Below, piece by piece: positions 19,387-40,259 of a DNA stretch of 40,359 nt; position 1 is the stretch's first letter, and each line of letters begins with the position of its first letter. A model generated the notes under the pieces. That model ran no database searches. It had not been told where the DNA came from and saw only the letters and a list, made by a program, of their open reading frames with translations. The DNA comes from an uncultured Dehalococcoidia bacterium. GTDB taxonomy: Bacteria; Chloroflexota; Dehalococcoidia; UBA2247; RBG-13-53-26. Where the stretch lies: NCBI GenBank assembly GCA_964409515.1, contig CAYPDY010000004.1:1-40359 (forward strand). The letters run 5' to 3'. Position numbers and translations under genes: made by a program.

Positions 19387-20314
19387 CGTGATAATAGAAA
19401 CCCGGGGACTGACCAAGAGATTTGGCAAGCTGGTGGCCGTGGACGGCCTCGATGTGAAGGTCGACACCGGAACGATCCACGGATTCGTGGGACCCAACGG
19501 GGCTGGAAAATCAACCACCATCAAGCTCCTGGTGGGTGCCATCAGGCGCACCAGCGGCGTGGGGTTCATCAAGGGGTACCCCATCGGTTCGGTGGACGCG
19601 CGCCGGGCCATCGGCTACTCCCCGGAGCGTCCCTCCTTCTACAAGGACTGGACCGCCTTCGACTACCTGGTCCACATGGCCGCCCTGAGCGGGATCAAGA
19701 CGGCCGAGGCCGAGCGGCGCAGCCAGGAGCTCCTGGAGTGGCTGGAGCTGAGCGACTTCGCCGGGGCCAGGGTAGGAGGATTCAGTGCCGGCATGAAGCA
19801 GCGCCTGAGCATCGCCCAGGCCATGACCCACAAACCCGAGCTGCTGGTCCTGGACGAACCCACCGCCAACCTGGACCCTGATGGCCGGATGTCCCTCCTG
19901 GAAAAGCTCAAGAGCCTGCCCCGGGAACAGGGCGTGACCGTCTTCATCAGCAGCCACATCCTCTCGGAGCTGGAGTACCTGATCGATTCCGTCACCCTGA
20001 TCAACAAGGGCCGCACGGTGGCCGAGGACAGCATCAAGGACATGAAAGAGGACATGGCCCTGAACCGCTATGTCTTGAACACCTCGAACAACGAGGCGGT
20101 GATGAAGGCCTTGCAGGGGCACCCGTCCATACAGGAAATGAAGAGCGGCGCCGATGGCGTCATCCACATCAGCAGCCCCGATATGGGGAAGCTCCAGGTG
20201 GCCGTAATGGAGGCGGTGACCAAGACGGGCAGCCTGCTGAAAACCTTCGGCGAGGAACAGGTGAGGCTGGAGGACATCTACCGCAGCACCATGGACCAGG
20301 GAAAGGACAAGTAG
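19376..20314 (+). CDS. ABC transporter ATP-binding protein (ABC-2/CcmA-type)
   Basis: Walker A is GPNGAGKST, the signature is FSAGMKQRL and Walker B is LLVLDEP. The start overlaps the upstream gene by 11 nt. Confidence 0.9.
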   Translation: MATNVIIETRGLTKRFGKLVAVDGLDVKVDTGTIHGFVGPNGAGKSTTIKLLVGAIRRTSGVGFIKGYPIGSVDARRAIGYSPERPSFYKDWTAFDYLVHMAALSGIKTAEAERRSQELLEWLELSDFAGARVGGFSAGMKQRLSIAQAMTHKPELLVLDEPTANLDPDGRMSLLEKLKSLPREQGVTVFISSHILSELEYLIDSVTLINKGRTVAEDSIKDMKEDMALNRYVLNTSNNEAVMKALQGHPSIQEMKSGADGVIHISSPDMGKLQVAVMEAVTKTGSLLKTFGEEQVRLEDIYRSTMDQGKDK

Positions 20315-21262
20315 ATGGGAATGTTGGCCATTGTCCGAAAGACGCTCATCGACCTCACGGGCTGGAAGAGGACGCTTACCCTCCTGGTGCTCGGCCTGCT
20401 GCTGCCGGTGCTCATCGGCATTTTCTGGCGCTTTGAGTTGCAGAACGCCGGGCTGTCTCCGGAGATGGAGACCTACGTGGTGGTCAAGCACTTCATCGGC
20501 ATCTCCTTCATCTGGACCGCGGGGTTGTTCCTGGCCATGGCCGTGGTGACCAACGCCGCGGGTGCCTTGTCCAAGGAGGCCAGCGACGGCACGCTTCTCA
20601 CGCTGGTCAGCAAACCGATATCCCGCCGCCAGATCGTCCAGGGCAAGTTCGTCGCCATAGTGGCACATGCCTTCCTCATGACCGCCATCATACTGCTGGT
20701 CCAGGCCATTGTTCTCTGGTTCATGCTTCCGGTCGAGGCTCCCAGCTTCGCCGCCCTGCTGGCCGCCATCCCCTGGGTCCTGCTCTACTCGCTGCTGGTG
20801 ATCCTGGTCTTCGCCTCAGTATCACTGGCCCTGTCCTCCCTTATCGACAACCAGGTGGCCATAACGGTCCTGGCCTGCGGGGTGGTCCTGTTCATGTTCC
20901 TCTTCGGCCCCATCAGCAGCATGTTCGGCCTGCACTCGCCGTCCTACGAGAATAACCATATCTACCTGATGGACGGCTCCTACCAGCTGGGCAACGCCTT
21001 CGCGCCCGCCCTCGAACAGGCGCTCGGCGGAGAGATGCTGCCCGCCAGCGAGCTGGGAGAAATGAAGGTCTTCGCCGGCATCTTCCAGGGGGGGAGGTGG
21101 GAAGATGAGTACACGGACTGGGAGAACTCCTCGGAGTACCAGTACCCGGGGGAGCTGGCCAACTACGTGAGCCCCTGGGTATCGGTCGTTCTGCTGATGG
21201 TTCTGGCCGGCGGATCCCTGGCCGTGGCCATCGCGGCGACGGAGAGAAAGGATGTCGGGTAG
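20315..21262 (+). CDS. ABC-2 family permease with a large extracytoplasmic loop
   Basis: The gene starts on the base after the ATPase stop. It has six hydrophobic segments. A polar insert of about 80 aa (HSPSYENNHIYLMDGSYQ...EYQYPGELANYVSPW) precedes the last TM. Confidence 0.75.
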   Translation: MGMLAIVRKTLIDLTGWKRTLTLLVLGLLLPVLIGIFWRFELQNAGLSPEMETYVVVKHFIGISFIWTAGLFLAMAVVTNAAGALSKEASDGTLLTLVSKPISRRQIVQGKFVAIVAHAFLMTAIILLVQAIVLWFMLPVEAPSFAALLAAIPWVLLYSLLVILVFASVSLALSSLIDNQVAITVLACGVVLFMFLFGPISSMFGLHSPSYENNHIYLMDGSYQLGNAFAPALEQALGGEMLPASELGEMKVFAGIFQGGRWEDEYTDWENSSEYQYPGELANYVSPWVSVVLLMVLAGGSLAVAIAATERKDVG

Positions 21263-24200
21263 GGACGCGGGAATGACCAGGATTGCGCGACTGCTGGCCA
21301 TCCTGCTGATGACAGCCTGCATTATCGATGCCGGCCTGCTGGCCGGCATCGTACCACATGGCGGCCTGGCCTCACGGACTCGCGCCGCTCCTGCCGCACT
21401 GTCAGCTTCAGGTCACGGGGCGGCCGCCGCCGCCCCGTTGGCTGAGGCCTCGGTCACCTGCCAGCCCTTCGGTTTCTGTGGAGAAGGCTCGGCGGAGACG
21501 TTGGTGGCCAGCTTCAGTGACAGCAGCGGTGATCTTATCCTCCAGGGGACCTCCATCGGGCTCTATGTCCTGGGCCTGGACGGCTCCCTGCGGCATTTCC
21601 TCCACACCCCGTTCGGAGTGCGTTTCGTGGCCCTGATCGACGATATCACCGGCGACGGCAACAGGGAGGTCGTGCTGGCGCTGGGCGGCACGCAGGTGCC
21701 CGCGCTCCGCTGCTACGATGGAGCTACATGGGAGAAGCTGTGGCAGTACGCGCCGATGGTGAAGGTCTGGGACGACAGGCACTGGGTGGAGCGACAGACA
21801 TCCATCGCGAGCCTGGCGGTGATACGGGATGAGGGCTCACCGGGCCTGGCTGTGGTCTCCGAGGGGCGGGTGCTGGGCGTCGATGCCAGGGACGGCACCG
21901 AGCGCTGGCGGTCGGGCGCCACGCGCAACGCCAGCCGCCTGGAGGCCCTCGGCGATCTCGACGGCGACGGCGCCGATGAAGTCTTCGTGACCGCGACGGA
22001 CGGCCGCCTCTTCCTGCTCCATGGACGCACGGGTGAAATCGGGTGGCAGACCCGGCTCCCGGAACAGACGTCTGGCGGCGAGGTCACGCAGGCAGCGCCG
22101 GGGACCACCCTGGTGCTGGACGCCGAAGAGGGCCTGTTAGCTGTGGCCGCCACGGACGGGCTGGTGCGGTTGTATGACCTCAGGGCCAAGAGGCTGGATT
22201 GGGATGCCGGTTTCTCAGGGGACGATACGGGCTCCGTGGGCCCCATGGTGCTGGTTCCCAATGCCATGCCCGATGGCCGGCCCGGGATCCTGGCATCATA
22301 CAGCAACTCCGTTCCACTAGGTGACGGGTCCATGGAGATGCGGCAGAGGATGGCCCTGCTCGATCCCGCCGGGAACAGGCTGTGGGATAGGGATGGAGGC
22401 AACGGCTGGAGCCTCAACGTCGGCAACTTCGGGGGCCGGCCGGTCTTGATCCAGCCCGCGGAGGAGGAGATCAGACTGATCGACCTGGCCGATGGCCAGT
22501 CAGTGGTCAAGACTATAGCCACCGGCGCTCTGCAGGAAGGCGCCGGGAATGTAAGCCAGATCGGGTCGGATGCCTTCCTGGTCGGCAGTGAGATGACGGC
22601 CCTGTCCTCGACGGGAGACGTTCTGTGGCACTACCCTCTCATCGATAACGTCAGGGCAACATCCGGGGACTTCGTCGGTGACGCCACCGAGGATACTCTC
22701 TTCAGCGGTGAATGGGAAAGGGAGTCCTGGGTACGCGGTCCTGGCGTCAACGAGGACGGCATCACGCTGGCCGCTCCTCCTTACACGACCCCGGTGGAGG
22801 CGCCGGAGCCTGAGGTGCGCCTGCTGAAGGTAATGGACGGGGCGACCGGAGAGATCGCCTGGTCCTACGAGGTGCCGCCGGGCGACATGAAGGACGAGGG
22901 CGGACTGAAGGGACTGGAGATAGCCGCCAACCTGGTGGGCGATGACGGCGGCCAGGATATCGTCTGCCACCGCGGCGACTCCGTCCTCATCTTCGACGGC
23001 CAGACGGGAACGTCCTCCAGCTTCCCCACGGGTCAACCGGTGGAGTCGCTGCAGGTCATGCGGGGAGGGGGCTCCCGCAGGGCACTCGCAGTCGTCGCCG
23101 CCGACAACCTGACCATCTTCGACATCACCGGCGCCGCCCTCTGGACCACCACGGGCGCCGAATGGGTCGACGGCGAAACCGTCAGGCTCACCACCCTGGA
23201 CGACCTCAACTCCGACAATGTCAGCGACCTGGCCGTCCTCTGTGAGAGCCGGATCGTCCTTCTGGAGAGCGTTGGCAGCGCTGCCGCTTATCAGCCGCAC
23301 CTGACCTTCGATGCGGAGACGGGTTGCCTGATCGAGTTCGCGCAGGTGGTGCCCGACGCCAACGGAGACGGCGTGAGAGAGCTGGCCTACATCCAGCGGG
23401 ACCCGGGAACGCCGCAGGCTGACCAGGAGTGGGATAAGATCCCCAGCCAGCCCCCGCAGCCCCTTTTGGTGAAGCGTTCCCCGGTCGGCGGGGAGCAGCT
23501 CCTGCGAATCACTATCCCCGGATGGAACTCCGCCGTCGAGCTCTCCTCCGGAGACTTCGATGGCGACGGCTGCCCCGACGCGCTCATCTGCTGTGACTCC
23601 TACCAGATATACGGTGACCCTAGTTCCCCCGGGGAATACGGTACGGTGCTGAGGGCGGTCTCCGGCAGGGACGGGGCGACCCTGTGGGAGCACCTGTTGA
23701 CCAACAAGTCGTCCTGGACCGTGAACGGATGGAAGTCCAGCCTCCCGGCCGGCAGTGCGGGGGATGTGACTGGTGACGGCAAGGACGACCTGGGCTGGAC
23801 GTCCTACTCGTCGGTTGAGGCTTATTCCGGCTACTACTGCATCCAGCAGTATGTGGAGGTCTACGATGTGGCCCGTGACCGGCCGGTGGCCACCGTGCCG
23901 GCGAGCCCGCTGCTGGGAGAGGACGCCGGCGGGTACGGCTGGGTCGAGTACCCCCTGCTATTCCCGGGCGATGTGAATGGCGACGGCCGCGCAGAGGTGC
24001 TGGCCGGGGTGAGCGAGCCGACGACGGCCCCCCTCGTCGGGTCCCCATATGCCAACTACGTGGCCGTGCTGGACCTGCAGGCCGGCGAGCGCCTGGCGGC
24101 GTACCTGGGGTTCAGTCCGTTATCGATCTCCCTGTTTGAAACCCATCGGCCCGGGGTGCTGGGCGTGGCCGGGGCCGGCGGCATCTACTTCCTGAACACG

Positions 24201-24602
24201 GAGGCCAGCCTGCAGATCACTTCGCCGGCGCAGGGGGCGAGCACCGGGCCGACGGTGGACGTCCGGTGGGAGGGCACCGCCGAAGGGGAATTCGTCCAGG
24301 TGTTTGTCGATGGAGTGCGCAACCACACGGGCAACGGATCCGAGGTCCGGCTGTACCTGGGCCGCGGAGAGCACGATATCGTGGTCTGGTCCATGGACGA
24401 CTGCGGCCGGATACTCTACGGGCCCGCGGGCCTGGGCGTCCCGATATCGGTCAGGGTCACGGCTTCCCCCTGGAAGCCTGTCATGCTGGTGCTGACCCTG
24501 CTGGTGGTGGCAGCCTTCATCCTCGCCCTGCTCTACCCCAGGCTGCACCGCATATTGCGAGCCCGGCAGAGGGCGGCGAAGATGCAGGCCCAGCGCCCCT
24601 GA
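21252..24602 (+). CDS. giant membrane-anchored FG-GAP/PQQ-like beta-propeller repeat protein (paralog 2)
   Basis: It aligns with 16021..19386 by eye at both ends: SVTC(M/Q)PFG...LRHFL..PFG(I/V)R..ALIDD.TGDG.REVV.AL..TQVPALRCYDGA.WE at the N-terminus and VDGVRN...LYLG.G.H..VV.S.DD.GR..YGPA.L..P...SPWKP...LLYPRLHR at the C-terminus. The ATG lies after GGAGAGAAAGG and overlaps the permease by 11 nt. Confidence 0.75.
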   Translation: MSGRDAGMTRIARLLAILLMTACIIDAGLLAGIVPHGGLASRTRAAPAALSASGHGAAAAAPLAEASVTCQPFGFCGEGSAETLVASFSDSSGDLILQGTSIGLYVLGLDGSLRHFLHTPFGVRFVALIDDITGDGNREVVLALGGTQVPALRCYDGATWEKLWQYAPMVKVWDDRHWVERQTSIASLAVIRDEGSPGLAVVSEGRVLGVDARDGTERWRSGATRNASRLEALGDLDGDGADEVFVTATDGRLFLLHGRTGEIGWQTRLPEQTSGGEVTQAAPGTTLVLDAEEGLLAVAATDGLVRLYDLRAKRLDWDAGFSGDDTGSVGPMVLVPNAMPDGRPGILASYSNSVPLGDGSMEMRQRMALLDPAGNRLWDRDGGNGWSLNVGNFGGRPVLIQPAEEEIRLIDLADGQSVVKTIATGALQEGAGNVSQIGSDAFLVGSEMTALSSTGDVLWHYPLIDNVRATSGDFVGDATEDTLFSGEWERESWVRGPGVNEDGITLAAPPYTTPVEAPEPEVRLLKVMDGATGEIAWSYEVPPGDMKDEGGLKGLEIAANLVGDDGGQDIVCHRGDSVLIFDGQTGTSSSFPTGQPVESLQVMRGGGSRRALAVVAADNLTIFDITGAALWTTTGAEWVDGETVRLTTLDDLNSDNVSDLAVLCESRIVLLESVGSAAAYQPHLTFDAETGCLIEFAQVVPDANGDGVRELAYIQRDPGTPQADQEWDKIPSQPPQPLLVKRSPVGGEQLLRITIPGWNSAVELSSGDFDGDGCPDALICCDSYQIYGDPSSPGEYGTVLRAVSGRDGATLWEHLLTNKSSWTVNGWKSSLPAGSAGDVTGDGKDDLGWTSYSSVEAYSGYYCIQQYVEVYDVARDRPVATVPASPLLGEDAGGYGWVEYPLLFPGDVNGDGRAEVLAGVSEPTTAPLVGSPYANYVAVLDLQAGERLAAYLGFSPLSISLFETHRPGVLGVAGAGGIYFLNTEASLQITSPAQGASTGPTVDVRWEGTAEGEFVQVFVDGVRNHTGNGSEVRLYLGRGEHDIVVWSMDDCGRILYGPAGLGVPISVRVTASPWKPVMLVLTLLVVAAFILALLYPRLHRILRARQRAAKMQAQRP

Positions 24603-29227: not shown

Positions 29228-29509
29228 ATGATACGGGACTTCCGCGACAGAGAGACCGAGAAGGTGTTCTCTCGAGAAAGGTCCCGCAGACTCCCGGAAG
29301 GCATCCAGCGGATCGCTCTTCGCAAGCTGGTCATCCTTGATGCAGCGGATTCGCTCGAGGACCTGGCTCTGCCTCCAGGCAATCGCCTGGAGAAACTGCA
29401 TGGGGATCTTGCCGGGCGGTACAGTATCCGCATCAACGAGCGATGGAGGGTCTGTTTCCGCTGGAGCGATGGGGATGCCTACGATGTCGAGATAGCTGAC
29501 TATCACTAG
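29228..29509 (+). CDS. higB: HigB-type (RelE/ParE superfamily, killer protein) toxin
   Basis: MIRDFRDRETEKVFSRERSRRLPEGIQRIALRKLVILDAADSLEDLALPPGNRLEKLHGDLAGRYSIRINERWRVCFRW is the classic HigB-like pattern. The start is trimmed from the track ORF start at 29120. Confidence 0.85.
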   Translation: MIRDFRDRETEKVFSRERSRRLPEGIQRIALRKLVILDAADSLEDLALPPGNRLEKLHGDLAGRYSIRINERWRVCFRWSDGDAYDVEIADYH

Positions 29510-29517
29510 GAGGTGGG

Positions 29518-29823
29518 ATGCCCGGGAAGAAACTGCCGCCGGTTCATCCAGGTGAAGTACTGCTGGAGGAATTCTTGAAGCCCATGGGGATAAGCCAGTA
29601 CCGGCTGGCCAAAGACATAAGCGTGCCACCGCGTCGCATCAACGAGATAGTGCATGGCAAGAGAGCGGTTACGGCCGACACCGCCCTGAGACTGTCGCGG
29701 TACTTCGGCACTTCCGAGCGCTTCTGGCTGAACCTGCAGACCCGCTACGACATCGAGATGGAGAAGGACCGCCTGGGCGGCAGTCTGGACAGGGAGGTCC
29801 GCGCCCTGGCGGCCGCCAGGTAA
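29518..29823 (+). CDS. higA: HigA-type HTH antitoxin
   Basis: VHPGEVLLEEFLKPMGISQYRLAKDISVPPRRINEIVHGKRAVTADTALRLSRYFGTSERFWLNLQ matches HigA. The gene starts 8 nt after higB. Confidence 0.85.
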   Translation: MPGKKLPPVHPGEVLLEEFLKPMGISQYRLAKDISVPPRRINEIVHGKRAVTADTALRLSRYFGTSERFWLNLQTRYDIEMEKDRLGGSLDREVRALAAAR

Positions 29824-30206: not shown

Positions 30207-30986
30207 TTACCGCCGGAGCGAGGCCGATACCCTGATGGCGTCGGCCTGGCATGATTCCACGCATCTGCCGCACCGTGTGCAGTCGGTGCAGCTCTCGATG
30301 TCCTCCAGGTTCTCTATCTTCACCGGGCAGACCCGGAGGCAGGCCTGGCAGCGGCTGCACTTGTCGAAGTCCACCCGCACCTTCAGCAGGCTCACCGGGT
30401 TGAACAGGCCCAGCACCGCCCCCATGGGGCAGAGGAAGCGGCACCAGAACCGGCCAACCAGAACGAAGAGAGCGAGGGCTATCGCCAGGGTCAGCAGATG
30501 GACGTAGAAGAAAGTCCCGAAGTGAAACTCGGTGGACACGAACCGCTGCGGAATGGCCGCGAACAGGCTGCCCGCCGGGCAGATCTTGCAGAAGAGCGTC
30601 TCCCCCGCCGCCCACGCCAGCACCACCACGGCGAAGAGAACGACGAACTTGATCCAGGCGCCGCGGGGCAGACGGAGGATGTCCCGGCCTCTCCGCCCCC
30701 GCACCAGTGAGACCAGGTCCTGCACCAGCCCGAAAGGGCAGGCCCAGCCGCACCAGAACCTCCCCAGGGCCAGGCCGAACAGGCCGACCACGCCCAGGGC
30801 GTAGAACGGGAACTGCTGCAGGGCAGCGTAGTTCTGAAAGACCCCGATGGGGCAGGCAAATGCCGCCGCCGGGCAGGCGTAGCAGTAGAAGAAGGGGCAG
30901 GGGATGCCGGTCTTCAGTATGGCGAAAACACCCAGGTTGGCGATGACCAGAGCCAGGATCTGGGTGGTCCACCGGAGCTTGCTCAT
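30207..30986 (-). CDS. membrane polyferredoxin (NapH/MauN/CcoG-like, COG0348-type)
   Basis: The likely start is MSKLRWTTQ (ATG 30986). Motifs include RFWCGWACPFG and RFWCRFLCPMG (CX3CP), an N-terminal CPFFYCYACPAAAFACPIG, and C-terminal CSRCQACLRVCP plus CTDCTRCGRCVESC. Several TM helices are present. Confidence 0.75.
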   Translation of the reverse strand: MSKLRWTTQILALVIANLGVFAILKTGIPCPFFYCYACPAAAFACPIGVFQNYAALQQFPFYALGVVGLFGLALGRFWCGWACPFGLVQDLVSLVRGRRGRDILRLPRGAWIKFVVLFAVVVLAWAAGETLFCKICPAGSLFAAIPQRFVSTEFHFGTFFYVHLLTLAIALALFVLVGRFWCRFLCPMGAVLGLFNPVSLLKVRVDFDKCSRCQACLRVCPVKIENLEDIESCTDCTRCGRCVESCQADAIRVSASLRR

Positions 30987-30996
30987 TAGCCTCTTG

Positions 30997-31140
30997 TCAA
31001 CCGATCCCCACACAGGAGGTGCAGATGACGATCACCAGGCTGCGCACCATGTCATACTGGCTGGCCGCGAAGCCGGCCGCGAAGCCCGTGAAGAGCAGAA
31101 GAAGAAGGAGGCGAAGTGCCAATAGACCGTTTTCTCTCAT
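30997..31140 (-). CDS. unannotated 47-aa membrane peptide with a C-terminal CxxC
   Basis: It is not in the ORF track as a separate gene. The sequence is MRENGLLALRLLLLLLFTGFAAGFAASQYDMVRSLVIVICTSCVGIG, after a G-rich SD (GGGGGTTGGGC). Its stop lies 10 nt before the NapH-like ATG. Confidence 0.5.
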   Translation of the reverse strand: MRENGLLALRLLLLLLFTGFAAGFAASQYDMVRSLVIVICTSCVGIG

Positions 31141-31178
31141 GCCCAACCCCCGAATGGACACCCCGGGGCGCCCTCTCG

Positions 31179-31667
31179 TCAGCCGGTGTAGCCAGCCAGC
31201 ACGGAGTCCACCCTCTCGGCAAACTCCGTCGGACCCAGGTATCCCGATATGCGATCGATCTCCGCGCCTGACGCGTCCGTGAAGACCGTGGTGGGGACGT
31301 AGAAGCCCGTGCCCTCTTGCATGTAGCTTTCGTAGAGCCGGCTCTTCCAGGTGTTGCTCTTGACGGGCACCAGCCTCTCGTTTATGAGTGCGCTCACACT
31401 ATCATCTGAGAACGTGCCGGCATCCAGCCGCTTGCAGGCCGGTCAGGTGTCGGTGTAGAAGTTGACCATGATGGGCTTGTTCTCGCTCGCCGCCTGGTCC
31501 TTCGCCGCCTCCCAGTCCCGCTGGAAGACCACCTTCGTTTCCACGCTGTCGGTGCAGCCCGCCCCGCCGGCCATGATCAGGGCCATGGACAGGACCATGA
31601 CGACCGCCCAGGCGAGCCTCAATAGCCGGCCCGCAGCCGCTGCCGCGCCTGACGTCCGGAAGCTCAT
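31179..31667 (-). CDS. thioredoxin-fold lipoprotein with Sec in the redox motif (T-U-P-A-C)
   Basis: ORFs 31443..31736 and 31179..31397 share a frame (31445-31397=48). Read-through of TGA 31445-31443 gives KPIMVNFYTDT-U-PACKRLDAGTFSDDSV..., so the TGA sits at the first Cys of the WCxxCK motif of Thioredoxin_7-type proteins. The signal and lipobox read LSMALIMAGGAGC. The ATG at 31667 forms an ATGA overlap with the upstream gene. Confidence 0.7.
31417..31442 (-). promoter_or_regulatory. candidate SECIS-region stem immediately 3' of the UGA
   Basis: On the mRNA, CCGGC (31442-31438) pairs with GCCGG (31421-31417) around a 16-nt interior that can form a few more pairs. The apical loop is not obviously canonical. 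Confidence 0.25.
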
Positions 31668-32368
31668 CTGCCGCCCCCGGCACAGGCCTGCCCTTCCCGG
31701 ACCACCAGCGACCCCACCGGGCACACGCGCACGCACTCCAGGCAGGAATCACACCTGGCCTCCGCCAGGGGTATCCGGTCGAAGGTGCTGATCGTGGTCT
31801 CCAGGCCGCGGAAGGCGAAATCAATGGAGCCCACGCCATGGCGCTGGCAGACCCAGACGCACTTGCCGCACAGAACGCACTTGTTCGGGTCGTAGGTGAA
31901 CAGCGGGTGGCTGGAGTCGACGGGCAGATCGCGCGGAATGGGCCGCAGCCTCTGCAGCTTCAGCTTGAAGCCCTGGCGGGCCGCGATCTTCTGCAGCTCG
32001 CAGCTCTTGTTCTTCGGGCAACGGGCGCAGTCCAGATGATGATGGGACAGGAGGAGCTCGAAGGCGGTGCGGCGAAGCTGCTTCACCGCGGGCGTGTCCG
32101 TGCGGACCACCATGCCGTCCTCCACCGGCTGGCTGCAGGCCGCGACCGGCGCCCGCCGGCCCTCGATCTCGACGAAGCAGAGCCGGCACCCGCCGAACGG
32201 CGGGTCCGCCTCGCGGATAGCGCACAGGTTCGGGATGTAGATATCGTGGTCCAGGGCCACCCACAGGAGCCTCTCTCCCGCGCGGGCCCTGACCTCGCGG
32301 CCATCAATGCTGAGGACGACTTCCCTGTCTATGGCTCCCTCCACGCACCCCTCAATGCTAGAATACAA
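31664..32368 (-). CDS. 2Fe-2S plus 4Fe-4S protein resembling the NuoG/HymC/FdhA N-terminal module
   Basis: NLCAIREADPPFGGCRLCFVEIEG...ACS is the 2Fe-2S motif. HHLDCARCPKNKSC is a His-ligated 4Fe-4S motif. CVLCGKCVWVCQ and CDSCLECVRVCPVGSL are also present. The exact start is uncertain: the TTG at 32368 is only the ORF-track start. Confidence 0.75.
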   Translation of the reverse strand: MYSSIEGCVEGAIDREVVLSIDGREVRARAGERLLWVALDHDIYIPNLCAIREADPPFGGCRLCFVEIEGRRAPVAACSQPVEDGMVVRTDTPAVKQLRRTAFELLLSHHHLDCARCPKNKSCELQKIAARQGFKLKLQRLRPIPRDLPVDSSHPLFTYDPNKCVLCGKCVWVCQRHGVGSIDFAFRGLETTISTFDRIPLAEARCDSCLECVRVCPVGSLVVREGQACAGGGR

Positions 32369-32389: not shown

Positions 32390-32752
32390 TTACTTGACCA
32401 GCCAGTCCAGGGCCTCCTGCTCGGTCTTGAAGGGCCGGGCCGGGACGGCGACCTTGGCGAAGATGCCCGTCACCGCATCCATGAGCACCTTCTTCACCCC
32501 CGTGACGCCCAGGATGGCGATCTTCTCCACCTTCTTCTTGGCGGTGTCCGGGCCGTGACGCCTGAGCCAGTCCATGACCTCCCGCGATACCGCGGCGTCC
32601 TCGATGTTGCCCAGGTAAAGCACCTTGTTCGGAGAAGCCAGTATCAGCCGGTCGGCCTCCTCCAGGAGCGCCACGAACTCCTTCGAGCTCAGCTTGCGAT
32701 AGTCGACGTAGAGCACCTGCTTGCCCTTGTATTCCATCCACTTCGCCGGCAT
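32390..32752 (-). CDS. small STAS-like (SpoIIAA-like fold) protein, tandem copy 1
   Basis: The protein is 120 aa: MPAKWMEYKGKQVLYVDYRK...KIAILGVTGVKKVL...ARPFKTEQEALDWLVK. The fold assignment is tentative and rests on the overall pattern ending in F..eeA..WL. Confidence 0.45.
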   Translation of the reverse strand: MPAKWMEYKGKQVLYVDYRKLSSKEFVALLEEADRLILASPNKVLYLGNIEDAAVSREVMDWLRRHGPDTAKKKVEKIAILGVTGVKKVLMDAVTGIFAKVAVPARPFKTEQEALDWLVK

Positions 32753-32765
32753 GTGTCCCCCCTTT

Positions 32766-33128
32766 CTACTCGACCAGCCAGTCCAGGGCCTCCTGTTCGG
32801 TCTTGAAGGCCCGGACTGGAATCCCAGTCCTGTCGAACATTCCCACCACCGCCTCCATGAGGATCTTCTTGACCCCGGCGACGCCCACGACGGCCAGCTT
32901 GATGAGCATCTTGCGGCCCATCCTGTCGGCGATTTCCCTGATCTCCTTCATCACTTCCCGCGACACCGCCGCATCTTCGATGTTGCCGAGGTAGAGTATC
33001 TTGCTCGGCGATGCCCGGGCCAGGGCGTCGCCCTCCCTCAGCGCCGCCACGAACTCCTGTGAGCTGGCCTTGCGGACGTCAACGTAGAGGACCTTCTTCC
33101 CCTTGTGTTCTATCCACTTCGCCGGCAT
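32766..33128 (-). CDS. small STAS-like protein, tandem copy 2
   Basis: It starts MPAKWIEHKGKKVLYVDVRK and ends VRAFKTEQEALDWLVE. The SD AAGGGGGGTGCAG matches that of copy 1. The track ORF overextends to 33173. Confidence 0.45.
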   Translation of the reverse strand: MPAKWIEHKGKKVLYVDVRKASSQEFVAALREGDALARASPSKILYLGNIEDAAVSREVMKEIREIADRMGRKMLIKLAVVGVAGVKKILMEAVVGMFDRTGIPVRAFKTEQEALDWLVE

Positions 33129-33180
33129 CTGCACCCCCCTTTCTTCATGTCGCAGGACTGTCGCGGCCATCACTGCCCGG

Positions 33181-33558
33181 TCAGAGGATACCGGGCTCAG
33201 AGAGCCACTTCAGGGCCGCTTCCTCCGTCTCGAACTTGCGGGCCGTGTCCTTCCCCAGGGCCGCGACGAAGGAGTCGAAGAATACCGCCAGCAGGCCCGT
33301 GGCCCCCACCACAGCGATCTTCTCCGCCCGCTGGCGCAGCACCATTCTGGCCGACCCCTTGAGATAGTTCATCACCTCCCCGGTCACGTACGCCCCCTCG
33401 ACGTTGCCCAGAATGAGCACTCTCCCCCGGGAAGCCGCCACCGCGTCATTGGTCTCCTTCATCAGGGGAAGGATCTCCTTCGGCTTCATCCCGCGGTAGT
33501 CGACGTAGAGCACGCTCTTGCCCCGGTGCTCCATCCATCTCCAGCGCATCTGGGTCAT
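33181..33558 (-). CDS. small STAS-like protein, tandem copy 3 (more diverged)
   Basis: MTQMRWRWMEHRGKSVLYVDYRG...KIAVVGATGLLAVF...ARKFETEEAALKWL shows the same pattern. Confidence 0.45.
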   Translation of the reverse strand: MTQMRWRWMEHRGKSVLYVDYRGMKPKEILPLMKETNDAVAASRGRVLILGNVEGAYVTGEVMNYLKGSARMVLRQRAEKIAVVGATGLLAVFFDSFVAALGKDTARKFETEEAALKWLSEPGIL

Positions 33559-33738: not shown

Positions 33739-34056
33739 ATGGTGAACGAGATCAAGGACCAGGACTTCGAGAAAGAGGTGCTCCAGTCCAGCCTCCCCGT
33801 CGTGGTCGATTTCTGGGCCCCGTGGTGCGGCCCCTGCCGCCAGATCGGGCCCATAGTAGAGAAGCTGTCCGAGGAGTACAAAGGCAAGCTGAAGTTCTGC
33901 AAACTGAACGTGGATGAGAACCATGACGTCCCGTCCAAGTATCACGTCATGAGCATACCAACGCTGATCTTCTTTAAGAAGGGGGAGCTGGCTGACCAGT
34001 CAGTGGGCGCGCTCCCCGAGAAGGCGCTGCGCTCCAAACTGCAGGACCTTCTCTAG
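33739..34056 (+). CDS. trxA: thioredoxin
   Basis: VVDFWAPWCGPCRQIGP is present. The protein is 105 aa and the SD is AAGGAGAAGAGG. Confidence 0.95.
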   Translation: MVNEIKDQDFEKEVLQSSLPVVVDFWAPWCGPCRQIGPIVEKLSEEYKGKLKFCKLNVDENHDVPSKYHVMSIPTLIFFKKGELADQSVGALPEKALRSKLQDLL

Positions 34057-34448: not shown

Positions 34449-35372
34449 CTACCGGCCCACGGCCGTCATCACGCCGGCGGCCTGGACGATCTGCCGGTAG
34501 CGCTCAATCTGCTCAGTCGTGGGGGCGGGAACGTCTCCCATGGTGAACTTGCGGCCCAGCTTCTCGAACTTGGACGCCCCCCAGACATGATAGGGAAGGA
34601 GGGAGATCCTGGCGGCGCCGATCTCTTTGGCAAACCGCGCCGTCTCCTTCAGGTTCTCTTCCGAGTCGTTGTAGCCCGGCACCACCGGCACCCTCACCCA
34701 CAGCCTTCGCTTCGCCGCCGCCTTTCGGGCATTCTCCAGGATCAGCTCGTTGGTCTTTCCGGTGCCTTCACGGTGTTTCTCCGGGTTCATGTGCTTGACG
34801 TCGTACAGGACCAGGTCGGTGTACGCCAGGAGCTTCTCCAGGATGCTCCACTCGGCGAAACCGGAAGTCTCGATGGCGGTGTGGAAGCCTCGTCCCTTGC
34901 AGGCCTTGAGGAGATCAACGGCGAACTCCCACTGCTGGAGCGGATCGCCGCCGGAGAGCGTGACGCCGCCGCCCGAGTTCTGGTAGAACAGCTCGTCAGC
35001 GGCCGCCTCCTGCATCACCTCATCCACGGTCATCCACTTCCCGGTGGCCGCCAGCGCCCCGGTGGGGCAGACATCCGCGCACTGCAGGCACCGGTTGCAC
35101 AGCCCGCGATCCAGCTTCCGGCCCGTGTCACTGACCACGATGGCATTCACCGGGCAGACCTGCGCGCAGCGGCCGCACCGGGTGCAGCGGAGGTCATTGG
35201 TAACGATCTCCTCGTAGGCATTCCAGGACTCCGGGTTGGAGCACCAGCGGCACCGCAGTCCGCAGCCCTTGAAGAAGACGACGGTCCTGATGCCAGGCCC
35301 GTCATGAATGCTGAAACGCTGGATGTTGAAGACCAGCCCCTGCCGGGGCGAAGGAACCTGTTGCGCGGACAT
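34449..35372 (-). CDS. glycyl-radical-enzyme activating protein (radical SAM with two extra ferredoxin-like clusters)
   Basis: FNIQRFSIHDGPGIRTVVFFKGCGLRCRWCSNPES is the rSAM CxxxCxxC context of the PflA/CutD/HpdA type. CTRCGRCAQVCP and CNRCLQCADVCP are the extra clusters. GGVTLSGGDPL is also present. Confidence 0.8.
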   Translation of the reverse strand: MSAQQVPSPRQGLVFNIQRFSIHDGPGIRTVVFFKGCGLRCRWCSNPESWNAYEEIVTNDLRCTRCGRCAQVCPVNAIVVSDTGRKLDRGLCNRCLQCADVCPTGALAATGKWMTVDEVMQEAAADELFYQNSGGGVTLSGGDPLQQWEFAVDLLKACKGRGFHTAIETSGFAEWSILEKLLAYTDLVLYDVKHMNPEKHREGTGKTNELILENARKAAAKRRLWVRVPVVPGYNDSEENLKETARFAKEIGAARISLLPYHVWGASKFEKLGRKFTMGDVPAPTTEQIERYRQIVQAAGVMTAVGR

Positions 35373-35468
35373 TCCTGTCTGGTGCCTCCTTGCGTTCAGC
35401 GGACAGGTATAGGATAGCCGAAGGCACCACCGGGTTCAAATCATGCGGTCCTGCACCCCGGGAAGCCT

Positions 35469-36695
35469 CTAGCGGCGGCCGCCCCTCGGCATCAGCAGCA
35501 CGTACCCTATCGCGCCGAACGCCAGCAGCACCATGCCTATGCCCAGCAGGAGCGTCCCGGTAGGCTCGACTTCCTTCAGGCTGTTGGGGTCCTTGTCGCC
35601 CGACAGCGCGCTGTCCATGAAAATGTAGGCCTGGTCGTAGTGCGTCCTGGCCTCCTCCAGATTGCCGGCGGCGTACTGCTGGTCGCCCAGCTGCTCTTCC
35701 ATGGCCGATTTGGCCGCCAGCTCCCGGGAGCCGGTGGTATTCAGCGTCGGGGTGCCGATGGCCACCAGCTTCTGCTTCACCGCCATGGCGGCATTCTGGT
35801 CGGCGGAGTAGACCGCGAAGTCGTCTCCGGCGGCCGTCCATCTCGCCGCATACTGGTAGTTGGCGATGATGTACTTGCCCGCCGCGGGTGCGGCGTTGAA
35901 CGTGATGGTCCCGGCATCAGGGTCCAGGGTGTAGTCGGCGGATAGTGCGCAGTCCACATACACCTGCTGGGTGCCGGGGACCACCGGCGGATGGTCCAGC
36001 TGGAACACGGTCTGGGCCCCATTGCCCGCTCCGACGAGCTCCACCTGCTGGTAGTCCACATTCACGGAGGCCCCCAGCGGAGGGGCCGTGGCGAAGGTGA
36101 TCCTGGCGCCGCCCATGCCGTAGTAGCAGTCGAGGGTGTAGGCCGTGGTCAGCTGCCCGTTCACGTAGACGTGAAGGGTCGACGGGTCCACCGGGCCGCT
36201 GTCCAGCGTCCAGACGGTACCGACCCCGCCGAGATTCTGCCTGGCGACAGGGTTCCCGACCCCGTAGCCCCCCGCCTTCGCATAGTCCACGAACACCGTA
36301 TAGCTGTGCCTCACCCGGCTGGAGATGGCCGACGCCTCCGGCACCGTGAAGCTGATGGCCACGGTGCCTCTCTCGTTGTTGGCCAGGGTCGCCGGGTAGT
36401 TGTCGGTGGCCGCGTATTCCCCGCCGGCCCAGTCGAACTCCACCTTGGCGCCCTTGATCTCGATGGTCTCCCCGGTGGTGTTCTGCAGCGATACCAGGAG
36501 AGTTGCCGTGGACCCTGCTTCATACGCCTGGATGGTGCCGCCCAGCAGCAGGTCAGATCCCTTGTAGGCCGTGTTCAACCATACCAGGGAGCCGATGGCG
36601 GCTGACGCGGGAGCGGGCGCCAGCGCTGCCGGCAGCACCAGGGCCGCGAACACCATGCCGATCACGATAAGCAGGAATGCGGACTTTCTCTTCAT
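35469..36695 (-). CDS. secreted, C-terminally membrane-anchored surface protein with an internal duplication
   Basis: The signal peptide is MKRKSAFLLIVIGMVFAALVLPAALAPAPASA. The C-terminal TM is LLLGIGMVLLAFGAIGYVLL, followed by a basic end. Two modules of about 55 aa are related (VYVNGQLTTAYTLD...ARITFATAPPLGASVNVDYQ and VYVDCALSADYTLDPDAGTITFNAAPAAGKYIIANYQ). Confidence 0.6.
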   Translation of the reverse strand: MKRKSAFLLIVIGMVFAALVLPAALAPAPASAAIGSLVWLNTAYKGSDLLLGGTIQAYEAGSTATLLVSLQNTTGETIEIKGAKVEFDWAGGEYAATDNYPATLANNERGTVAISFTVPEASAISSRVRHSYTVFVDYAKAGGYGVGNPVARQNLGGVGTVWTLDSGPVDPSTLHVYVNGQLTTAYTLDCYYGMGGARITFATAPPLGASVNVDYQQVELVGAGNGAQTVFQLDHPPVVPGTQQVYVDCALSADYTLDPDAGTITFNAAPAAGKYIIANYQYAARWTAAGDDFAVYSADQNAAMAVKQKLVAIGTPTLNTTGSRELAAKSAMEEQLGDQQYAAGNLEEARTHYDQAYIFMDSALSGDKDPNSLKEVEPTGTLLLGIGMVLLAFGAIGYVLLMPRGGRR

Positions 36696-36734
36696 ACTGA
36701 CCCCTCCTTCGATTCGGATCGGGACTGCCCCGGG

Positions 36735-37577
36735 CTAGTCCGTGACCATGACCGAGGCGTAGCCGACGACTTCAGAGTAGTCGCCGGTGATGTCCCCCGA
36801 GGTGGCATAGCGCAGCAGGCTGGCCTTCCTGGCGCCCAGCTCCTTGCCGGCGGTGATCATGGCCATAACCGGACCGGGACCGCACATGCTGATGTTCTGG
36901 CTGACCACCGTGGCCGCCACCTGGGCCGGGGCCAGCTTGAGGATGGCATCGATGGCGAGGCGGTCCTTCCGGCCGGCGGACGCCTGCGATTCGTAGTGGC
37001 TGAAGTCGGAGCTGGCGATTATCAACCCCGCTCTCCCCCTGAGGGCGGATGCGATGGCCCGGCCCAGGTCCTGGGCGATCTCCATTTCCTGCCGCAGCAT
37101 GGCGACGGGCACGATCTTGAACCCGGAGCCGTAGATGTACTGCAGGAACGGCACCTGGACCTCCAGTGAATGCTCCATGCCATGCGCCTGGTCATCCCAC
37201 TTGGCCCACTGCCCCCCGGCCACCACCGCCTCCCCCACCTCCAGGTCCACGTCCACCGCACCCAGCGGGGTCTGCCAGGGGCTCTGGCGGCCCACCGCTA
37301 CCGCGGCCCCCAGGCCGCGGTGGTTGGGGCCGACGATGACCACCACCTCGGGCATCTTCTCCGCCGCCAGCCGTGCGAAACCGTGGGCCGCCACGGGCCC
37401 GGAGTACACGTATCCCGCGTGCGGGAGGACCAGCCCCAGCGTGTGCCGCTCGGCGGACCGTACTTCGCCAGGGAGGGCGCCCGGCCCCAGTGGATGCTTG
37501 AAGCAGTCCTCTATCTGGCGCTGCAGGCCGGCGAATGAACCGGCATAGAAGGATCCGGCGACCGCGGGCTTCCTCAT
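36735..37577 (-). CDS. MEMO1-family protein (AmmeMemoRadiSam system protein B)
   Basis: It starts MRKPAVAGSFYAGSFAGLQRQIEDCF and contains VLPHAGYVYSGPVAAHGF, VVIVGPNH and SSDFSHYES. The start is trimmed from the track ORF end at 37625. Confidence 0.8.
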   Translation of the reverse strand: MRKPAVAGSFYAGSFAGLQRQIEDCFKHPLGPGALPGEVRSAERHTLGLVLPHAGYVYSGPVAAHGFARLAAEKMPEVVVIVGPNHRGLGAAVAVGRQSPWQTPLGAVDVDLEVGEAVVAGGQWAKWDDQAHGMEHSLEVQVPFLQYIYGSGFKIVPVAMLRQEMEIAQDLGRAIASALRGRAGLIIASSDFSHYESQASAGRKDRLAIDAILKLAPAQVAATVVSQNISMCGPGPVMAMITAGKELGARKASLLRYATSGDITGDYSEVVGYASVMVTD

Positions 37578-37595
37578 CTCTCTCCTATAAGCTCG

Positions 37596-37601
37596 ATTAT
37601 A
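37596..37601 (-). promoter_or_regulatory. candidate -10 (TATAAT) in front of the MEMO gene
   Basis: The minus strand reads TATAAT 18 nt upstream of the ATG, with GGAGAG between them. No good -35 was found. Confidence 0.3.
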
Positions 37602-37685
37602 GCCCGGAAGTCCAGCCCCCGGCATTGGCTGCCGCGGGGACCGAACAAAGGGCCGCGTCCGGCGGCCGGCCCGATGGGCGGCCGG

Positions 37686-38339: not shown

Positions 38340-39413
38340 TTATTCCTTCGTTCTTGAGGCGAGCCTCCTGGCCGCCCTTTCCACGTCACCCGCGCCCAGG
38401 ACCGCGCTGATGACCGCCACGGCATCGGCCCCGGCCTTGATGACTTCCCGGACATTGGTGTCGTTGATGCCGCCGATGGCTACCAGCGGCACGGATACCC
38501 TGGACCGCGTCCGCAGCAGGGTTTCCAGTCCCACCAGCCTGTACCTCTCCTTGGACGTGGTGGGGTAGATCGATCCCAGGGCCACGTAGTCGGCGCCGGC
38601 GGCCTGGGCCCGGACCGCCTCGGCCGTGCTGTGGGTGGAGCAGCCGATCAGCATATCAAGGGGAAGTATGCGCCGCGCCTCCGCCGGAGGCAAGTCATCC
38701 TGCCCCAGGTGAAGTCCATCGGCGCGCACTGCCAGGGCAATATCGAGATGATCGTTCACCACAAACAGAACGCCTTTCTCGGCGCAGAGGGACCGCAGCT
38801 TCCGGGCCGCGGCCAGCACGTCGGCCTTGCCCCGGTGCTTGTCCCTCAGTTGGATGATCCTGGCCCCGCCGCGAACAGCGGCGGCCGCCACGTCCACCTC
38901 ATCGCGCCCCCCGAGCGCCGTGGTGTCCAGAACCAGGTACAGGCCGTTCAACCGGCCGGCCTTGTCGTGCCGGCGCACCCGGCCCGCCAGGTGCTGCTCC
39001 AGGTCGTAGATCTCGAAACGGGCCTTCTCGAATCGGCCCGCCTGGCCGGCCAGCGGTCCACCGGAGAGGCGGCTGAACTCCTCCAGGACGCGCAGGGACT
39101 CCTGGGCCCTCCGCGAGTTGGCCAGCACCAGGGCCGTCAGGTCACCATGCGGCTCGGCCGGGCGCTTCGCTGCCGGAGCGCCCGTGCGCCCCACCGGAGC
39201 GCCTGTGCGCACCGGTGCGCCTACGTCCTCCGCCACGCGGCGGGCCGAGAGGAGATCCTGTTCCAGGGGGCCAAGGGTCTTCACCAGGTCGTGCCGCAGG
39301 GTCTTCAGCCGCCGGGAGCACGGGGCGTCATTGAGCAGAAAGCGGGAAACGTCTTCCAGGACCCGAAGTCCTTCCCCGAGGCGGTCCAGGTTGGCATCGA
39401 CAACTCGCAGCAC
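38340..39413 (-). CDS. thiE: thiamine-phosphate synthase with an N-terminal extension domain
   Basis: The C-terminal 210 aa are canonical ThiE (GLYLVLD...GGARIIQLRDK...VNDHLDIALAVRADGLHLGQDD...IGCSTHS...GADYVALGSIYPTTSK...VAIGGI). The N-terminal part of about 130 aa (MLRVVDANLDRLGEGLRVLEDVSRF) is joined through a GAPV-repeat linker. The GTG start shares 1 nt with the upstream stop. Confidence 0.85.
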   Translation of the reverse strand: MLRVVDANLDRLGEGLRVLEDVSRFLLNDAPCSRRLKTLRHDLVKTLGPLEQDLLSARRVAEDVGAPVRTGAPVGRTGAPAAKRPAEPHGDLTALVLANSRRAQESLRVLEEFSRLSGGPLAGQAGRFEKARFEIYDLEQHLAGRVRRHDKAGRLNGLYLVLDTTALGGRDEVDVAAAAVRGGARIIQLRDKHRGKADVLAAARKLRSLCAEKGVLFVVNDHLDIALAVRADGLHLGQDDLPPAEARRILPLDMLIGCSTHSTAEAVRAQAAGADYVALGSIYPTTSKERYRLVGLETLLRTRSRVSVPLVAIGGINDTNVREVIKAGADAVAVISAVLGAGDVERAARRLASRTKE

Positions 39414-39775
39414 TAGACCTCGGTCAGGCCAGGCTGCAGGTCCTTCACCGATTCAGGCATCTGTCCGTCGCGCGCCGCCTCTATCATGCCCTGAACCTCT
39501 GAAGGCATCTCCATGCCCAGGTCCTGGAATTTCTTCTCGGTCCACCGGCCGATGTTGCGCGGGTCGTTGTAGTAGCCCTCGCCGGGCTGGTACGGATCGC
39601 CTGATTCCTCGTGGATGGTGGCCAGCGACTTATGGTAGGCAAAGCTGGAGAAGACCCGGCTCATCTCGCGGCTGCCGCAGAAAGAACAAGCGGGCGACAG
39701 CGGATCGTTGAAGCCCTTCACGAAGAAGCTGGACTTCTTCTGGCACGAAGAGCAGCGGTACTCGTAGACCGGCAT
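39413..39775 (-). CDS. FmdB-family zinc-ribbon protein with a C-terminal extension
   Basis: The sequence is MPVYEYRCSSCQKKSSFFVKGFNDPLSPACSFCGS (CxxC...CxxC). Confidence 0.75.
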   Translation of the reverse strand: MPVYEYRCSSCQKKSSFFVKGFNDPLSPACSFCGSREMSRVFSSFAYHKSLATIHEESGDPYQPGEGYYNDPRNIGRWTEKKFQDLGMEMPSEVQGMIEAARDGQMPESVKDLQPGLTEV

Positions 39776-39781
39776 GGTGGC

Positions 39782-40204
39782 CTAGTCCTCTCCTCCGGAG
39801 GCGGACTCGGCGCCGGCGCCGGCCGCTGGCTCCTCTCCACCCATGATCCTCTTCTGCATCTCCGGCACCACGCTTTCGTAGCTTTCGCCGCGTTCCAGCC
39901 GCTCCACCATCTCCTGGTATTCCGGCTGCTTCTCACCCTCGGTGCCCCCCATCCTCCGCGACCACTCCACCATGGCAGTAGGATCATTGTGCATCATCCG
40001 ATTGACCAGGACGGGGTCGTCCAGGATATCGCCGTAGACATCCTGGTCCGTCCTCACCGTGGCGAACGTCGAGAACAGGCGAGTCAGGTCCTTACCACCA
40101 CAGAAACCGCAGGTCACGTCCCCGGCTCCCGAGAAACCCCTCACCAGCACGGACACCTTTCGCCCACACTTCTTGTTCTGACAACGGTACTCATAGACGG
40201 GCAT
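39782..40204 (-). CDS. FmdB-family zinc-ribbon protein (tandem paralog)
   Basis: It starts MPVYEYRCQNKKCGRKVSVLVRGFSGAGDVTCGFCGG. The start is trimmed from the track ORF end at 40243. The SD is GGGAGGATAGC. Confidence 0.75.
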   Translation of the reverse strand: MPVYEYRCQNKKCGRKVSVLVRGFSGAGDVTCGFCGGKDLTRLFSTFATVRTDQDVYGDILDDPVLVNRMMHNDPTAMVEWSRRMGGTEGEKQPEYQEMVERLERGESYESVVPEMQKRIMGGEEPAAGAGAESASGGED

Positions 40205-40259
40205 GCTATCCTCCCAAGCCAAAGAGGGCCGCCACTTTGCCATCGGCCCTAACTTAATG

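Follow-up and report, generated by a model that had tools for sequence, protein, structure and literature searches.

A probable selenoprotein gene with a thioredoxin-fold, UxxC-type product in an uncultured Dehalococcoidia bacterium

Introduction

In a 40,359-nucleotide stretch of DNA from an uncultured Dehalococcoidia bacterium (Chloroflexota; GenBank assembly GCA_964409515.1, contig CAYPDY010000004.1, positions 1 to 40,359; hereafter the window), a mechanical listing of open reading frames (ORFs) places two short ORFs, 31443..31736 and 31179..31397, in one and the same minus-strand frame, as a preliminary description made from the sequence alone had noted. The first of these ends at a TGA, and the question the locus raises is whether that TGA terminates a gene or is decoded as selenocysteine (Sec, U) inside one. 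Our analysis indicates that 31667-31179 is very probably a genuine selenoprotein gene, in which Sec would take the first position of a U-P-A-C redox motif. The favoured explanation as a whole, namely one gene whose internal UGA is read as Sec and whose thioredoxin-fold product is exported, is one that we consider highly probable.

The reading frame and its in-frame TGA

The minus-strand frame runs from an ATG at 31667-31665 to a terminal TGA at 31181-31179 and contains an in-frame TGA just once, at 31445-31443. Translation through this codon gave a product of 162 residues, MSFRTSG...LIMAGGAGCTD...NKPIMVNFYTDT-U-PACKRLDAGTFSDD...GYTG, and reproduced exactly the read-through sequence of the preliminary description (...NKPIMVNFYTDT-U-PACKRLDAGTFSDDSVSALINERLVPVK...); the resolving cysteine, Cys78, is encoded by a TGC at 31436-31434. 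The gene call made on the window sequence in public assemblies stops at the in-frame TGA and yields a 74-residue product. At the 5' end, the ATG overlaps the TGA stop (31666-31664) of an upstream Fe-S gene as ATGA. The coupling of the start to that gene, which had been suggested earlier, is present in the window, but it is not conserved: relatives have a gap of ~43 nucleotides (nt) here and start ~11 residues later.

TGA also serves as the terminal stop of the gene itself, of the upstream Fe-S gene and of the peptide gene that follows downstream, both in the window and in relatives. Since UGA still ends this gene and both its neighbours, reassignment of UGA is excluded, and the decoding at 31445-31443 must therefore be local and signal-dependent.

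The TGA in other assemblies and in homologues

The TGA was identical in contigs of four independent public runs aligned to 31150-31700, two of them bioreactor metagenomes with the same strain and two with a strain ~94% identical. A protein search, for which Cys was put in place of the in-frame stop, recovered only five full-length called proteins (P0001-P0005), all of which had C-P-x-C at this site; gene callers thus evidently truncate the TGA forms. Searches at the DNA level covered contigs from one genome per species as well as metagenomes and gave 78 loci, from each of which the codon aligned with the TGA was taken. This codon was TGA in 37 loci, which together with the window make 38 copies and 24 distinct sequences, and these came from Chloroflexota/Dehalococcoidia metagenome-assembled genomes (MAGs) or from wetland, sediment, freshwater and bioreactor metagenomes. 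It was TGC or TGT in ~40 loci, among them the more distant homologues, whose sources are other Dehalococcoidia, Desulfobacterales, archaea and Clostridia.

The TGA aligns with the Cys of P0001-P0005 and of the ~40 TGC/TGT loci, and so falls on the first Cys of the CPxC motif, where the preliminary description had put it. That description had also named homologues ending at this position as the mark of a truncated gene; the homologues do not end there. The motif at the TGA occurs as UPAC, UPWC, UPYC, UDAC and UGAC, and because the residues around the TGA vary in this way, the TGA forms are diverged orthologues and not copies of one sequence. Two close relatives, L081 (2775-3227) and L084 (596-1048), are 68% identical to the window protein and have TGC for TGA; they look like recent Sec-to-Cys conversions inside the Sec clade.

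That close relatives with TGC exist, one base away from TGA, might suggest that a TGC or TGT was misread or misassembled as the window's TGA. Such an error would have to recur, however, in the contigs of all four independent runs and in 37 independently assembled loci from many studies, and TGC or TGT at 31443 was found in none of the compared assemblies, which leaves this explanation with a vanishingly small probability.

Translation beyond the TGA

In 22 sequences the frame 3' of the TGA is open for 83-88 codons, and over 229 pairs the median ratio of nonsynonymous to synonymous divergence (dN/dS) downstream of the TGA was 0.28 at a mean synonymous divergence (dS) of ~1.0. The coding sequence is conserved across orthologues on both sides of the UGA, with purifying selection downstream. 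A 3' half that is open and constrained at dS ~1 is not dead.

These values bear directly on whether the locus is a pseudogene or a true truncation, in which the TGA ends translation and the downstream part is decaying. The public gene callers do stop at the TGA, with the 74-residue product given above, and no Sec machinery was seen in the window; both are as this explanation would have it. Against it, 24 distinct sequences keep the TGA together with the 83-88 open codons at this dS and dN/dS, the TGA sits exactly on the column of the catalytic Cys, and a 74-residue product would miss the whole thioredoxin fold after strand beta1. We judge the truncation highly improbable and close to refuted, and the choice of Sec decoding over decay, argued in the preliminary description from two TGAs at catalytic cysteines, is borne out by the comparative data.

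The ORF listing suggests one further arrangement, since it yields exactly two ORFs: two separate polypeptides could be made, the first a lipopeptide of 74 residues and the second a C-terminal fragment of 72 residues that arises by re-initiation at GTG 31397. The 15 codons from the TGA to this GTG (PACKRLDAGTFSDDS) would then be untranslated, and yet they are conserved at the protein level. The GTG itself is in relatives an ordinary conserved Val codon (GTG/GTC/GTA), neither fragment would form a complete thioredoxin fold, and the C-terminal one would lack an export signal. We consider two polypeptides very improbable, and continue with a single gene read through its UGA.

Protein family, fold and N-terminus

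The protein matched three Pfam families above their cut-offs of 27 bits: PF13899 (Thioredoxin_7) at 54 bits, PF13098 (Thioredoxin_2) at 52.8 bits and PF03190 (Thioredox_DsbH) at 30 bits. A profile search against sequences in the PDB matched 2KUC, a putative disulphide isomerase of Bacteroides, and DsbD-gamma domains with E-values of ~1e-11, and the CxxC motifs were aligned. For the Cys ortholog P0002, AlphaFold gave a thioredoxin fold whose mean predicted local distance difference test (pLDDT) score is 80, with a core above 90; in this model the first Cys of the motif (Cys64) lies at the junction of a strand (residues 55-60) and helix alpha1 (65-74), and the best Foldseek matches were 3F9U, the DsbD-gamma structure 1UC7 and the DsbH structure 2JU5. 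We assign the thioredoxin fold on the Pfam match above the gathering score and on the place of the CxxC at the N-terminus of helix alpha1 in the P0002 model. The family named in the preliminary description is therefore the right one, in that the protein is a Thioredoxin_7/Thioredoxin_2/DsbH member whose nearest solved relatives are DsbD-gamma domains.

At the N-terminus, residues 8-26 form a hydrophobic segment, after which comes a Gly-Cys pair, Gly37 and Cys38, that is invariant in all homologues. The lipoprotein signal suggested earlier is consistent with this arrangement, although position -3 varies (G, P, L or T) and is not the consensus Leu of the lipobox ([LVI][ASTVI][GAS]C). Cys38 would probably carry the lipid, as the residue with which the mature protein begins.

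A conserved hairpin downstream of the UGA

RNAalifold applied to the 24 TGA sequences gave a consensus hairpin, C(G/A)GC-UGGA(U/C)-GC(C/U)G, which begins 13 nt after the UGA and has its apical loop 16 nt from it. In the window the arms of the core are CGGC (31430-31427) on the 5' side and GCCG (31421-31418) on the 3' side, with the loop UGGAU (31426-31422) between them; U31436/G31435 can pair with C31416/A31415 to form an optional lower stem, separated from the core by a bulge of 3-4 nt. All four core pairs are kept in 24/24 TGA forms. A fifth pair and a lower stem of 2-3 base pairs (bp), U19-A40 and G20-C39 in alignment columns, are found in about half of the sequences.

At the second core pair, 20 sequences have G-C and four have A-U, with no mismatches. 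The A-U sequences (L003, L030, L032 and L042) belong to four different clades of the gene tree, in each of which they stand beside G-C sequences, and from this scatter it follows that the double change arose repeatedly. The 5' change replaces an amino acid (Arg CGG to Gln CAG) and the 3' one is synonymous, at a third codon position (Ala GCC to GCU), so a protein constraint is hard to invoke for the pairing. Synonymous sites are frozen in the hairpin codons: Leu+6 is CTG in 24/24 and Arg+5 is only CGG, and the Ala codon covaries between GCC and GCT, whereas the Leu and Ala codons in other parts of the gene are free to vary. The hairpin was not found in 12/12 distant Cys-form genes. It is retained in the two close TGC forms, L081 and L084, with one pair now G-U in L084, as expected of a relic after a recent one-base Sec-to-Cys change.

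The consensus model of the Sec insertion sequence (SECIS) specifies a loop of 3-9 nt with a G among the first two nucleotides, a stem that comprises 4-16 bp, a spacing between 16 and 37 nt, and a minimum free energy of -7.5 kcal/mol or lower (PMC13188914). Measured against this model, the hairpin has a 5-nt loop with G at position 2 and then another G; its stem comprises 4-5 bp, and its spacing amounts to 16 nt. It resembles the bSECISearch consensus and the SECIS of the E. coli fdhF type in being a stem-loop that lies within the coding sequence, immediately 3' of the UGA, with a loop G2 followed by G. We regard it as the SECIS of this gene, though a minimal one, with fair confidence, because its comparative support is good, and we infer that SelB would bind to it.

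The preliminary description had pointed to another element, a CCGGC/GCCGG stem starting right after the UGA. That stem is present in the window, but as a conserved element (columns 13-17 with 34-38) it pairs in 57% of cells across the 24 sequences, no better than shuffles, and we rejected it; the foldable, covarying hairpin lies elsewhere, at the 13-nt distance given above. Two further candidates were set aside. CCGGCC/GGCUGG directly after the UGA pairs in 71% of cells with no covariation and Pro-Ala variants only, and a UCUCG/CGAGG hairpin 36 nt after the UGA is 84% paired, which does not exceed the shuffles, and is disrupted in the window. Rfam at the gathering threshold gave no family in the window, and a permissive Rfam search of 31300-31520 gave chance matches only.

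Probable selenocysteine use in the organism

The second TGA at a catalytic Cys that the preliminary description had reported in the window falls on the peroxidatic Cys (FTFV-U-PTE) of a peroxiredoxin that passes the NCBIfam PrxU equivalog model with 373 bits (cut-off 270). A canonical SECIS, UGGCGGC-GGUC-GCCGCCA, follows this UGA at a distance of 10 nt; its stem has 7 bp and its loop is GGUC. This hairpin is a textbook bacterial SECIS, and the candidate SECIS of the thioredoxin-like gene is, by comparison, much smaller. Dehalococcoidia MAGs are reported to be among the ten bacteria with most selenoprotein genes, with 49 and 46 (PMC13326102). With the PrxU TGA and SECIS on one side and the selenoprotein-rich Dehalococcoidia on the other, the evidence that the organism uses Sec is indirect but good, and we infer that its genome carries selABCD. 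A crude scan of the window for TGA-interrupted frames recovered the thioredoxin-like gene alone, with thresholds that missed even PrxU, and is uninformative.

Read-through without Sec would mean either that UGA is reassigned, to Trp or to Gly, or that Cys or Trp is inserted by near-cognate or suppressor decoding, and it gains from the facts that no Sec machinery was seen in the window and that the hairpin is weaker than a typical SECIS. Its first form is excluded by the stops described above. As to the second, the pairing of Cys with UGA at a redox CxxC is a Sec signature, the PrxU-type gene elsewhere in the window has a canonical SECIS with a GGUC loop, and a covarying hairpin at the SECIS position would have no role in simple leaky read-through. 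We hold decoding without Sec to be improbable, and Sec at residue 75 remains the reading that we favour.

Gene neighbourhood

Table 1. Coordinates of the predicted selenoprotein gene, its elements and the genes discussed with it
Feature	Position in window	Strand	Description
Predicted selenoprotein gene, complete	31179..31667	-	162 amino acids including Sec75; Thioredoxin_7/DsbD-gamma-like, probably a lipoprotein
In-frame UGA, predicted Sec residue 75	31443..31445	-	First position of the U-P-A-C redox motif
N-terminal export signal (predicted)	31554..31667	-	Hydrophobic segment, then ...AGGAG-C38, lipobox-like
Candidate SECIS	31415..31436	-	Core hairpin 31430-31418 and optional lower stem
47-amino-acid membrane peptide gene	30997..31140	-	Directly downstream of the selenoprotein gene; one transmembrane helix
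NapH-like membrane polyferredoxin gene	30207..30986	-	259 amino acids; Pfam Fer4_5 72.9 bits
HoxU/NuoG-N-terminal-like Fe-S gene	31664..32368	-	Pfam Fer2_4, NADH-G_4Fe-4S_3, Fer4; 2Fe-2S and 4Fe-4S motifs
Second predicted selenoprotein gene, PrxU peroxiredoxin	7791-8495	+	TGA 8046-8048; hairpin 8059-8076

In every locus that reaches far enough, the thioredoxin-like gene is followed by the 47-amino-acid ORF and then by the 259-amino-acid NapH-like gene (Table 1), and the same order is found in Cys forms that are just 42-56% identical. The 47-residue peptide has no Pfam or NCBIfam match and ends in a conserved motif, ...V-x-V-(I/L)-C-x-(S/A)-C-(I/V/M)-G-(I/L)-G. The NapH-like protein, whose relatives are 51-88% identical and syntenic, has two Fer4_5 CxxxCP motifs, two C-terminal 4Fe-4S motifs and five further conserved Cys in FYCxxCPxxxFxCPIG and FCKxCP loops; from the positive-inside rule and the NapH architecture, these two Cys-bearing loops are predicted to face outward. 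It scored below the NCBIfam NapH cut-offs (95.4 against 234 and 92.6 against 213 bits), and no napA, napB or napG was found near its gene, which is NapH-like in architecture only.

Upstream, the Fe-S protein scored 172.9 bits with NCBIfam HoxU, under the cut-off of 333, and its gene is syntenic in close relatives only. Beyond it lie STAS-like tandem paralogues (SpoIIAA/STAS, PF11964, DUF7793; 32390-33558, minus strand), the number of which differs between close relatives: none in L003 and L023, one in L024 and L047, two in L002 and L081, three in the window and four in L001 (2802-4462). Still further upstream are a divergently oriented classical thioredoxin gene (33739-34056) and, at 34449-37625 in the same orientation as the selenoprotein gene (minus strand), genes for a radical SAM/4Fe-4S enzyme, a scaffold protein of the NifU_N type, a protein that matches DUF2460 weakly and a Memo-like protein, the last four of which are syntenic with the selenoprotein locus in close relatives.

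Two of the more distant homologues have a different partner. In L011 (4793-6390), from a Desulfobacterales MAG, the thioredoxin-like gene stands beside a DsbD_TM/CcdA gene, which together with a MauE-like gene precedes it, and in L013 (5932-7020), from a Thermofilaceae archaeon, the thioredoxin-like domain is fused to a DsbD_TM/CcdA domain.

Proposed mechanism

We propose that the UGA at 31445-31443 is decoded as Sec by the bacterial SelB/tRNA-Sec route, and that the in-frame stem-loop CGGC-UGGAU-GCCG would guide this decoding. The DsbD-gamma/Thioredoxin_7-type product would be exported and probably lipid-anchored at Cys38, so that its active site, U75-P-A-C78, could attack substrate disulfides on the outer face of the membrane with a selenol and not a thiol. 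The protein would act as a reductase and would itself be re-reduced through the adjacent 47-residue CxxC peptide and the NapH-like Fe-S protein. An extracytoplasmic reductase of the DsbD-gamma type is the most economical reading of its role; that the CxxC peptide and the NapH-like protein replace CcdA as the electron supply is a tentative suggestion, drawn from gene order and conserved residues.

Several observations weigh against this proposal. Genes for selA, selB, selD and tRNA-Sec were found neither in the 40 kb window nor in those related loci that were scanned: Pfam and NCBIfam gave no SelA, SelB or SelD for ~40 window genes, and ARAGORN gave no tRNA-Sec in the window or in 17 loci and no tRNA gene of any kind in the window. 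The stem length and spacing of the hairpin lie at the lower limit of the consensus SECIS model, and its core energy of -5.1 to -7.0 kcal/mol is short of the -7.5 criterion, which just 7/24 sequences reach even with the lower stem. The minimum-energy fold of the window prefers the competing CCGGCC/GGCUGG stem, and the folding energy is no different from that of shuffled sequence (z ~ -0.4). As for the electron supply, there was no fusion of a thioredoxin to a NapH among the 120 best NapH-like homologues, and the functional link to the NapH-like protein comes only from synteny and conserved cysteines.

Relation to known families

A selenoprotein family called 'thiol:disulfide interchange protein' (with a UxxC motif; PF13098) has been predicted in surveys of prokaryotic selenoproteomes and is listed in PMC13188914. 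The window protein is like it in having a thioredoxin fold, Sec as the first residue of UxxC and a PF13098 score above the cut-off; in both, Cys-form homologues coexist with the Sec forms, and the proteins are predicted and not experimentally shown. It differs in that its best Pfam match is Thioredoxin_7 and not Thioredoxin_2, and in that its clade is confined to Chloroflexota/Dehalococcoidia and has a fixed neighbourhood with the 47-residue CxxC peptide and the NapH-like protein. At the domain level, the window gene would be filed with this family.

The gamma domain of DsbD and the free-standing extracytoplasmic thioredoxins reduced by CcdA/DsbD-beta offer the closest solved structures, both by sequence profile and by fold, and share with the window protein a (W)CxxC-K motif and a predicted extracytoplasmic location. 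Unlike DsbD gamma, the window protein has a predicted Sec for the N-terminal Cys and no adjacent DsbD_TM/CcdA gene, and it corresponds to the gamma-like domain only and not to a full-length DsbD (NCBIfam DsbD NF001419, 48 against 330 bits). Three NCBIfam families are likewise Thioredoxin_7/DsbD-gamma-like with Sec in some members, and the protein scored below the cut-off of each: NF041199 (Trx7/PDZ; 24.5 against 300 bits), NF041383 (VPGUxxT type 2; 25.5 against 275) and NF045694 (TsoB, rhodanese/DsbD fusion-like; 49.7 against 805). Unlike these, it has no PDZ and no rhodanese domain, and its predicted motif is UPAC and not CxxU or VPGU; by these measures it belongs to none of TsoB, Trx7/PDZ and VPGUxxT.

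Other features of the window

A HigB-like toxin gene (PF05015, 70.6 bits) and an HTH_3 antitoxin-like gene at 29234-29823 (plus strand) sit between a thiamine-binding-protein gene and the next conserved gene. These flanking genes are ~86 nt apart in L001, and the toxin-antitoxin pair therefore looks like a strain-specific insertion. The region 16021-24602 (plus strand) looks like a duplicated module, with two FG-GAP/PQQ beta-propeller proteins of ~1,120 amino acids (16021-19386 and 21252-24602) and, between them, genes for an ATP-binding cassette (ABC) ATPase and an ABC-2 permease. Two adjacent Zn_ribbon_8 (FmdB-family) genes lie at 39413-39775 and 39782-40243 (minus strand); FmdB is among the families with Sec-containing members according to a 2026 review (PMC13188914).

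Significance

Among bacterial selenoproteins, the commonest kind has Sec as the first residue of a UxxC in a thioredoxin fold, and switching between Sec and Cys within a family is normal. Given this, and the richness of Dehalococcoidia in selenoproteins, we regard the finding as correct and not surprising. The protein, which is new or at least lacked an annotation, is of an ordinary kind whose genes are routinely split by gene callers, and it leaves the knowledge of Sec decoding unchanged.

Its specialist interest lies in the very small covarying hairpin and in the conserved three-gene module with its NapH-like partner. If the hairpin is the SECIS, its 4 bp and 5-nt loop would place it among the smallest natural bacterial SECIS elements. 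SECIS predictors reportedly miss ~13% of bacterial selenoprotein genes (PMC13326102), and a well-supported, covarying and very small element at the edge of the consensus model would be useful for tuning them.

For annotation, the gene is split or truncated in public calls, where five called Cys forms stand against at least 24 distinct predicted Sec forms in DNA, and giving it a name puts right how a conserved operon of widespread uncultured anaerobic Chloroflexota is annotated. The partnership of a NapH-like protein and a CxxC mini-protein, where relatives have CcdA, is a testable lead on extracytoplasmic reduction of thiols and selenols. It is possible, though we put it forward with reserve, that the three proteins form a CcdA-independent transmembrane reducing route from cytoplasmic Fe-S carriers to an extracytoplasmic selenol/thiol oxidoreductase; if true, this route would be a non-homologous counterpart of DsbD-beta/CcdA.

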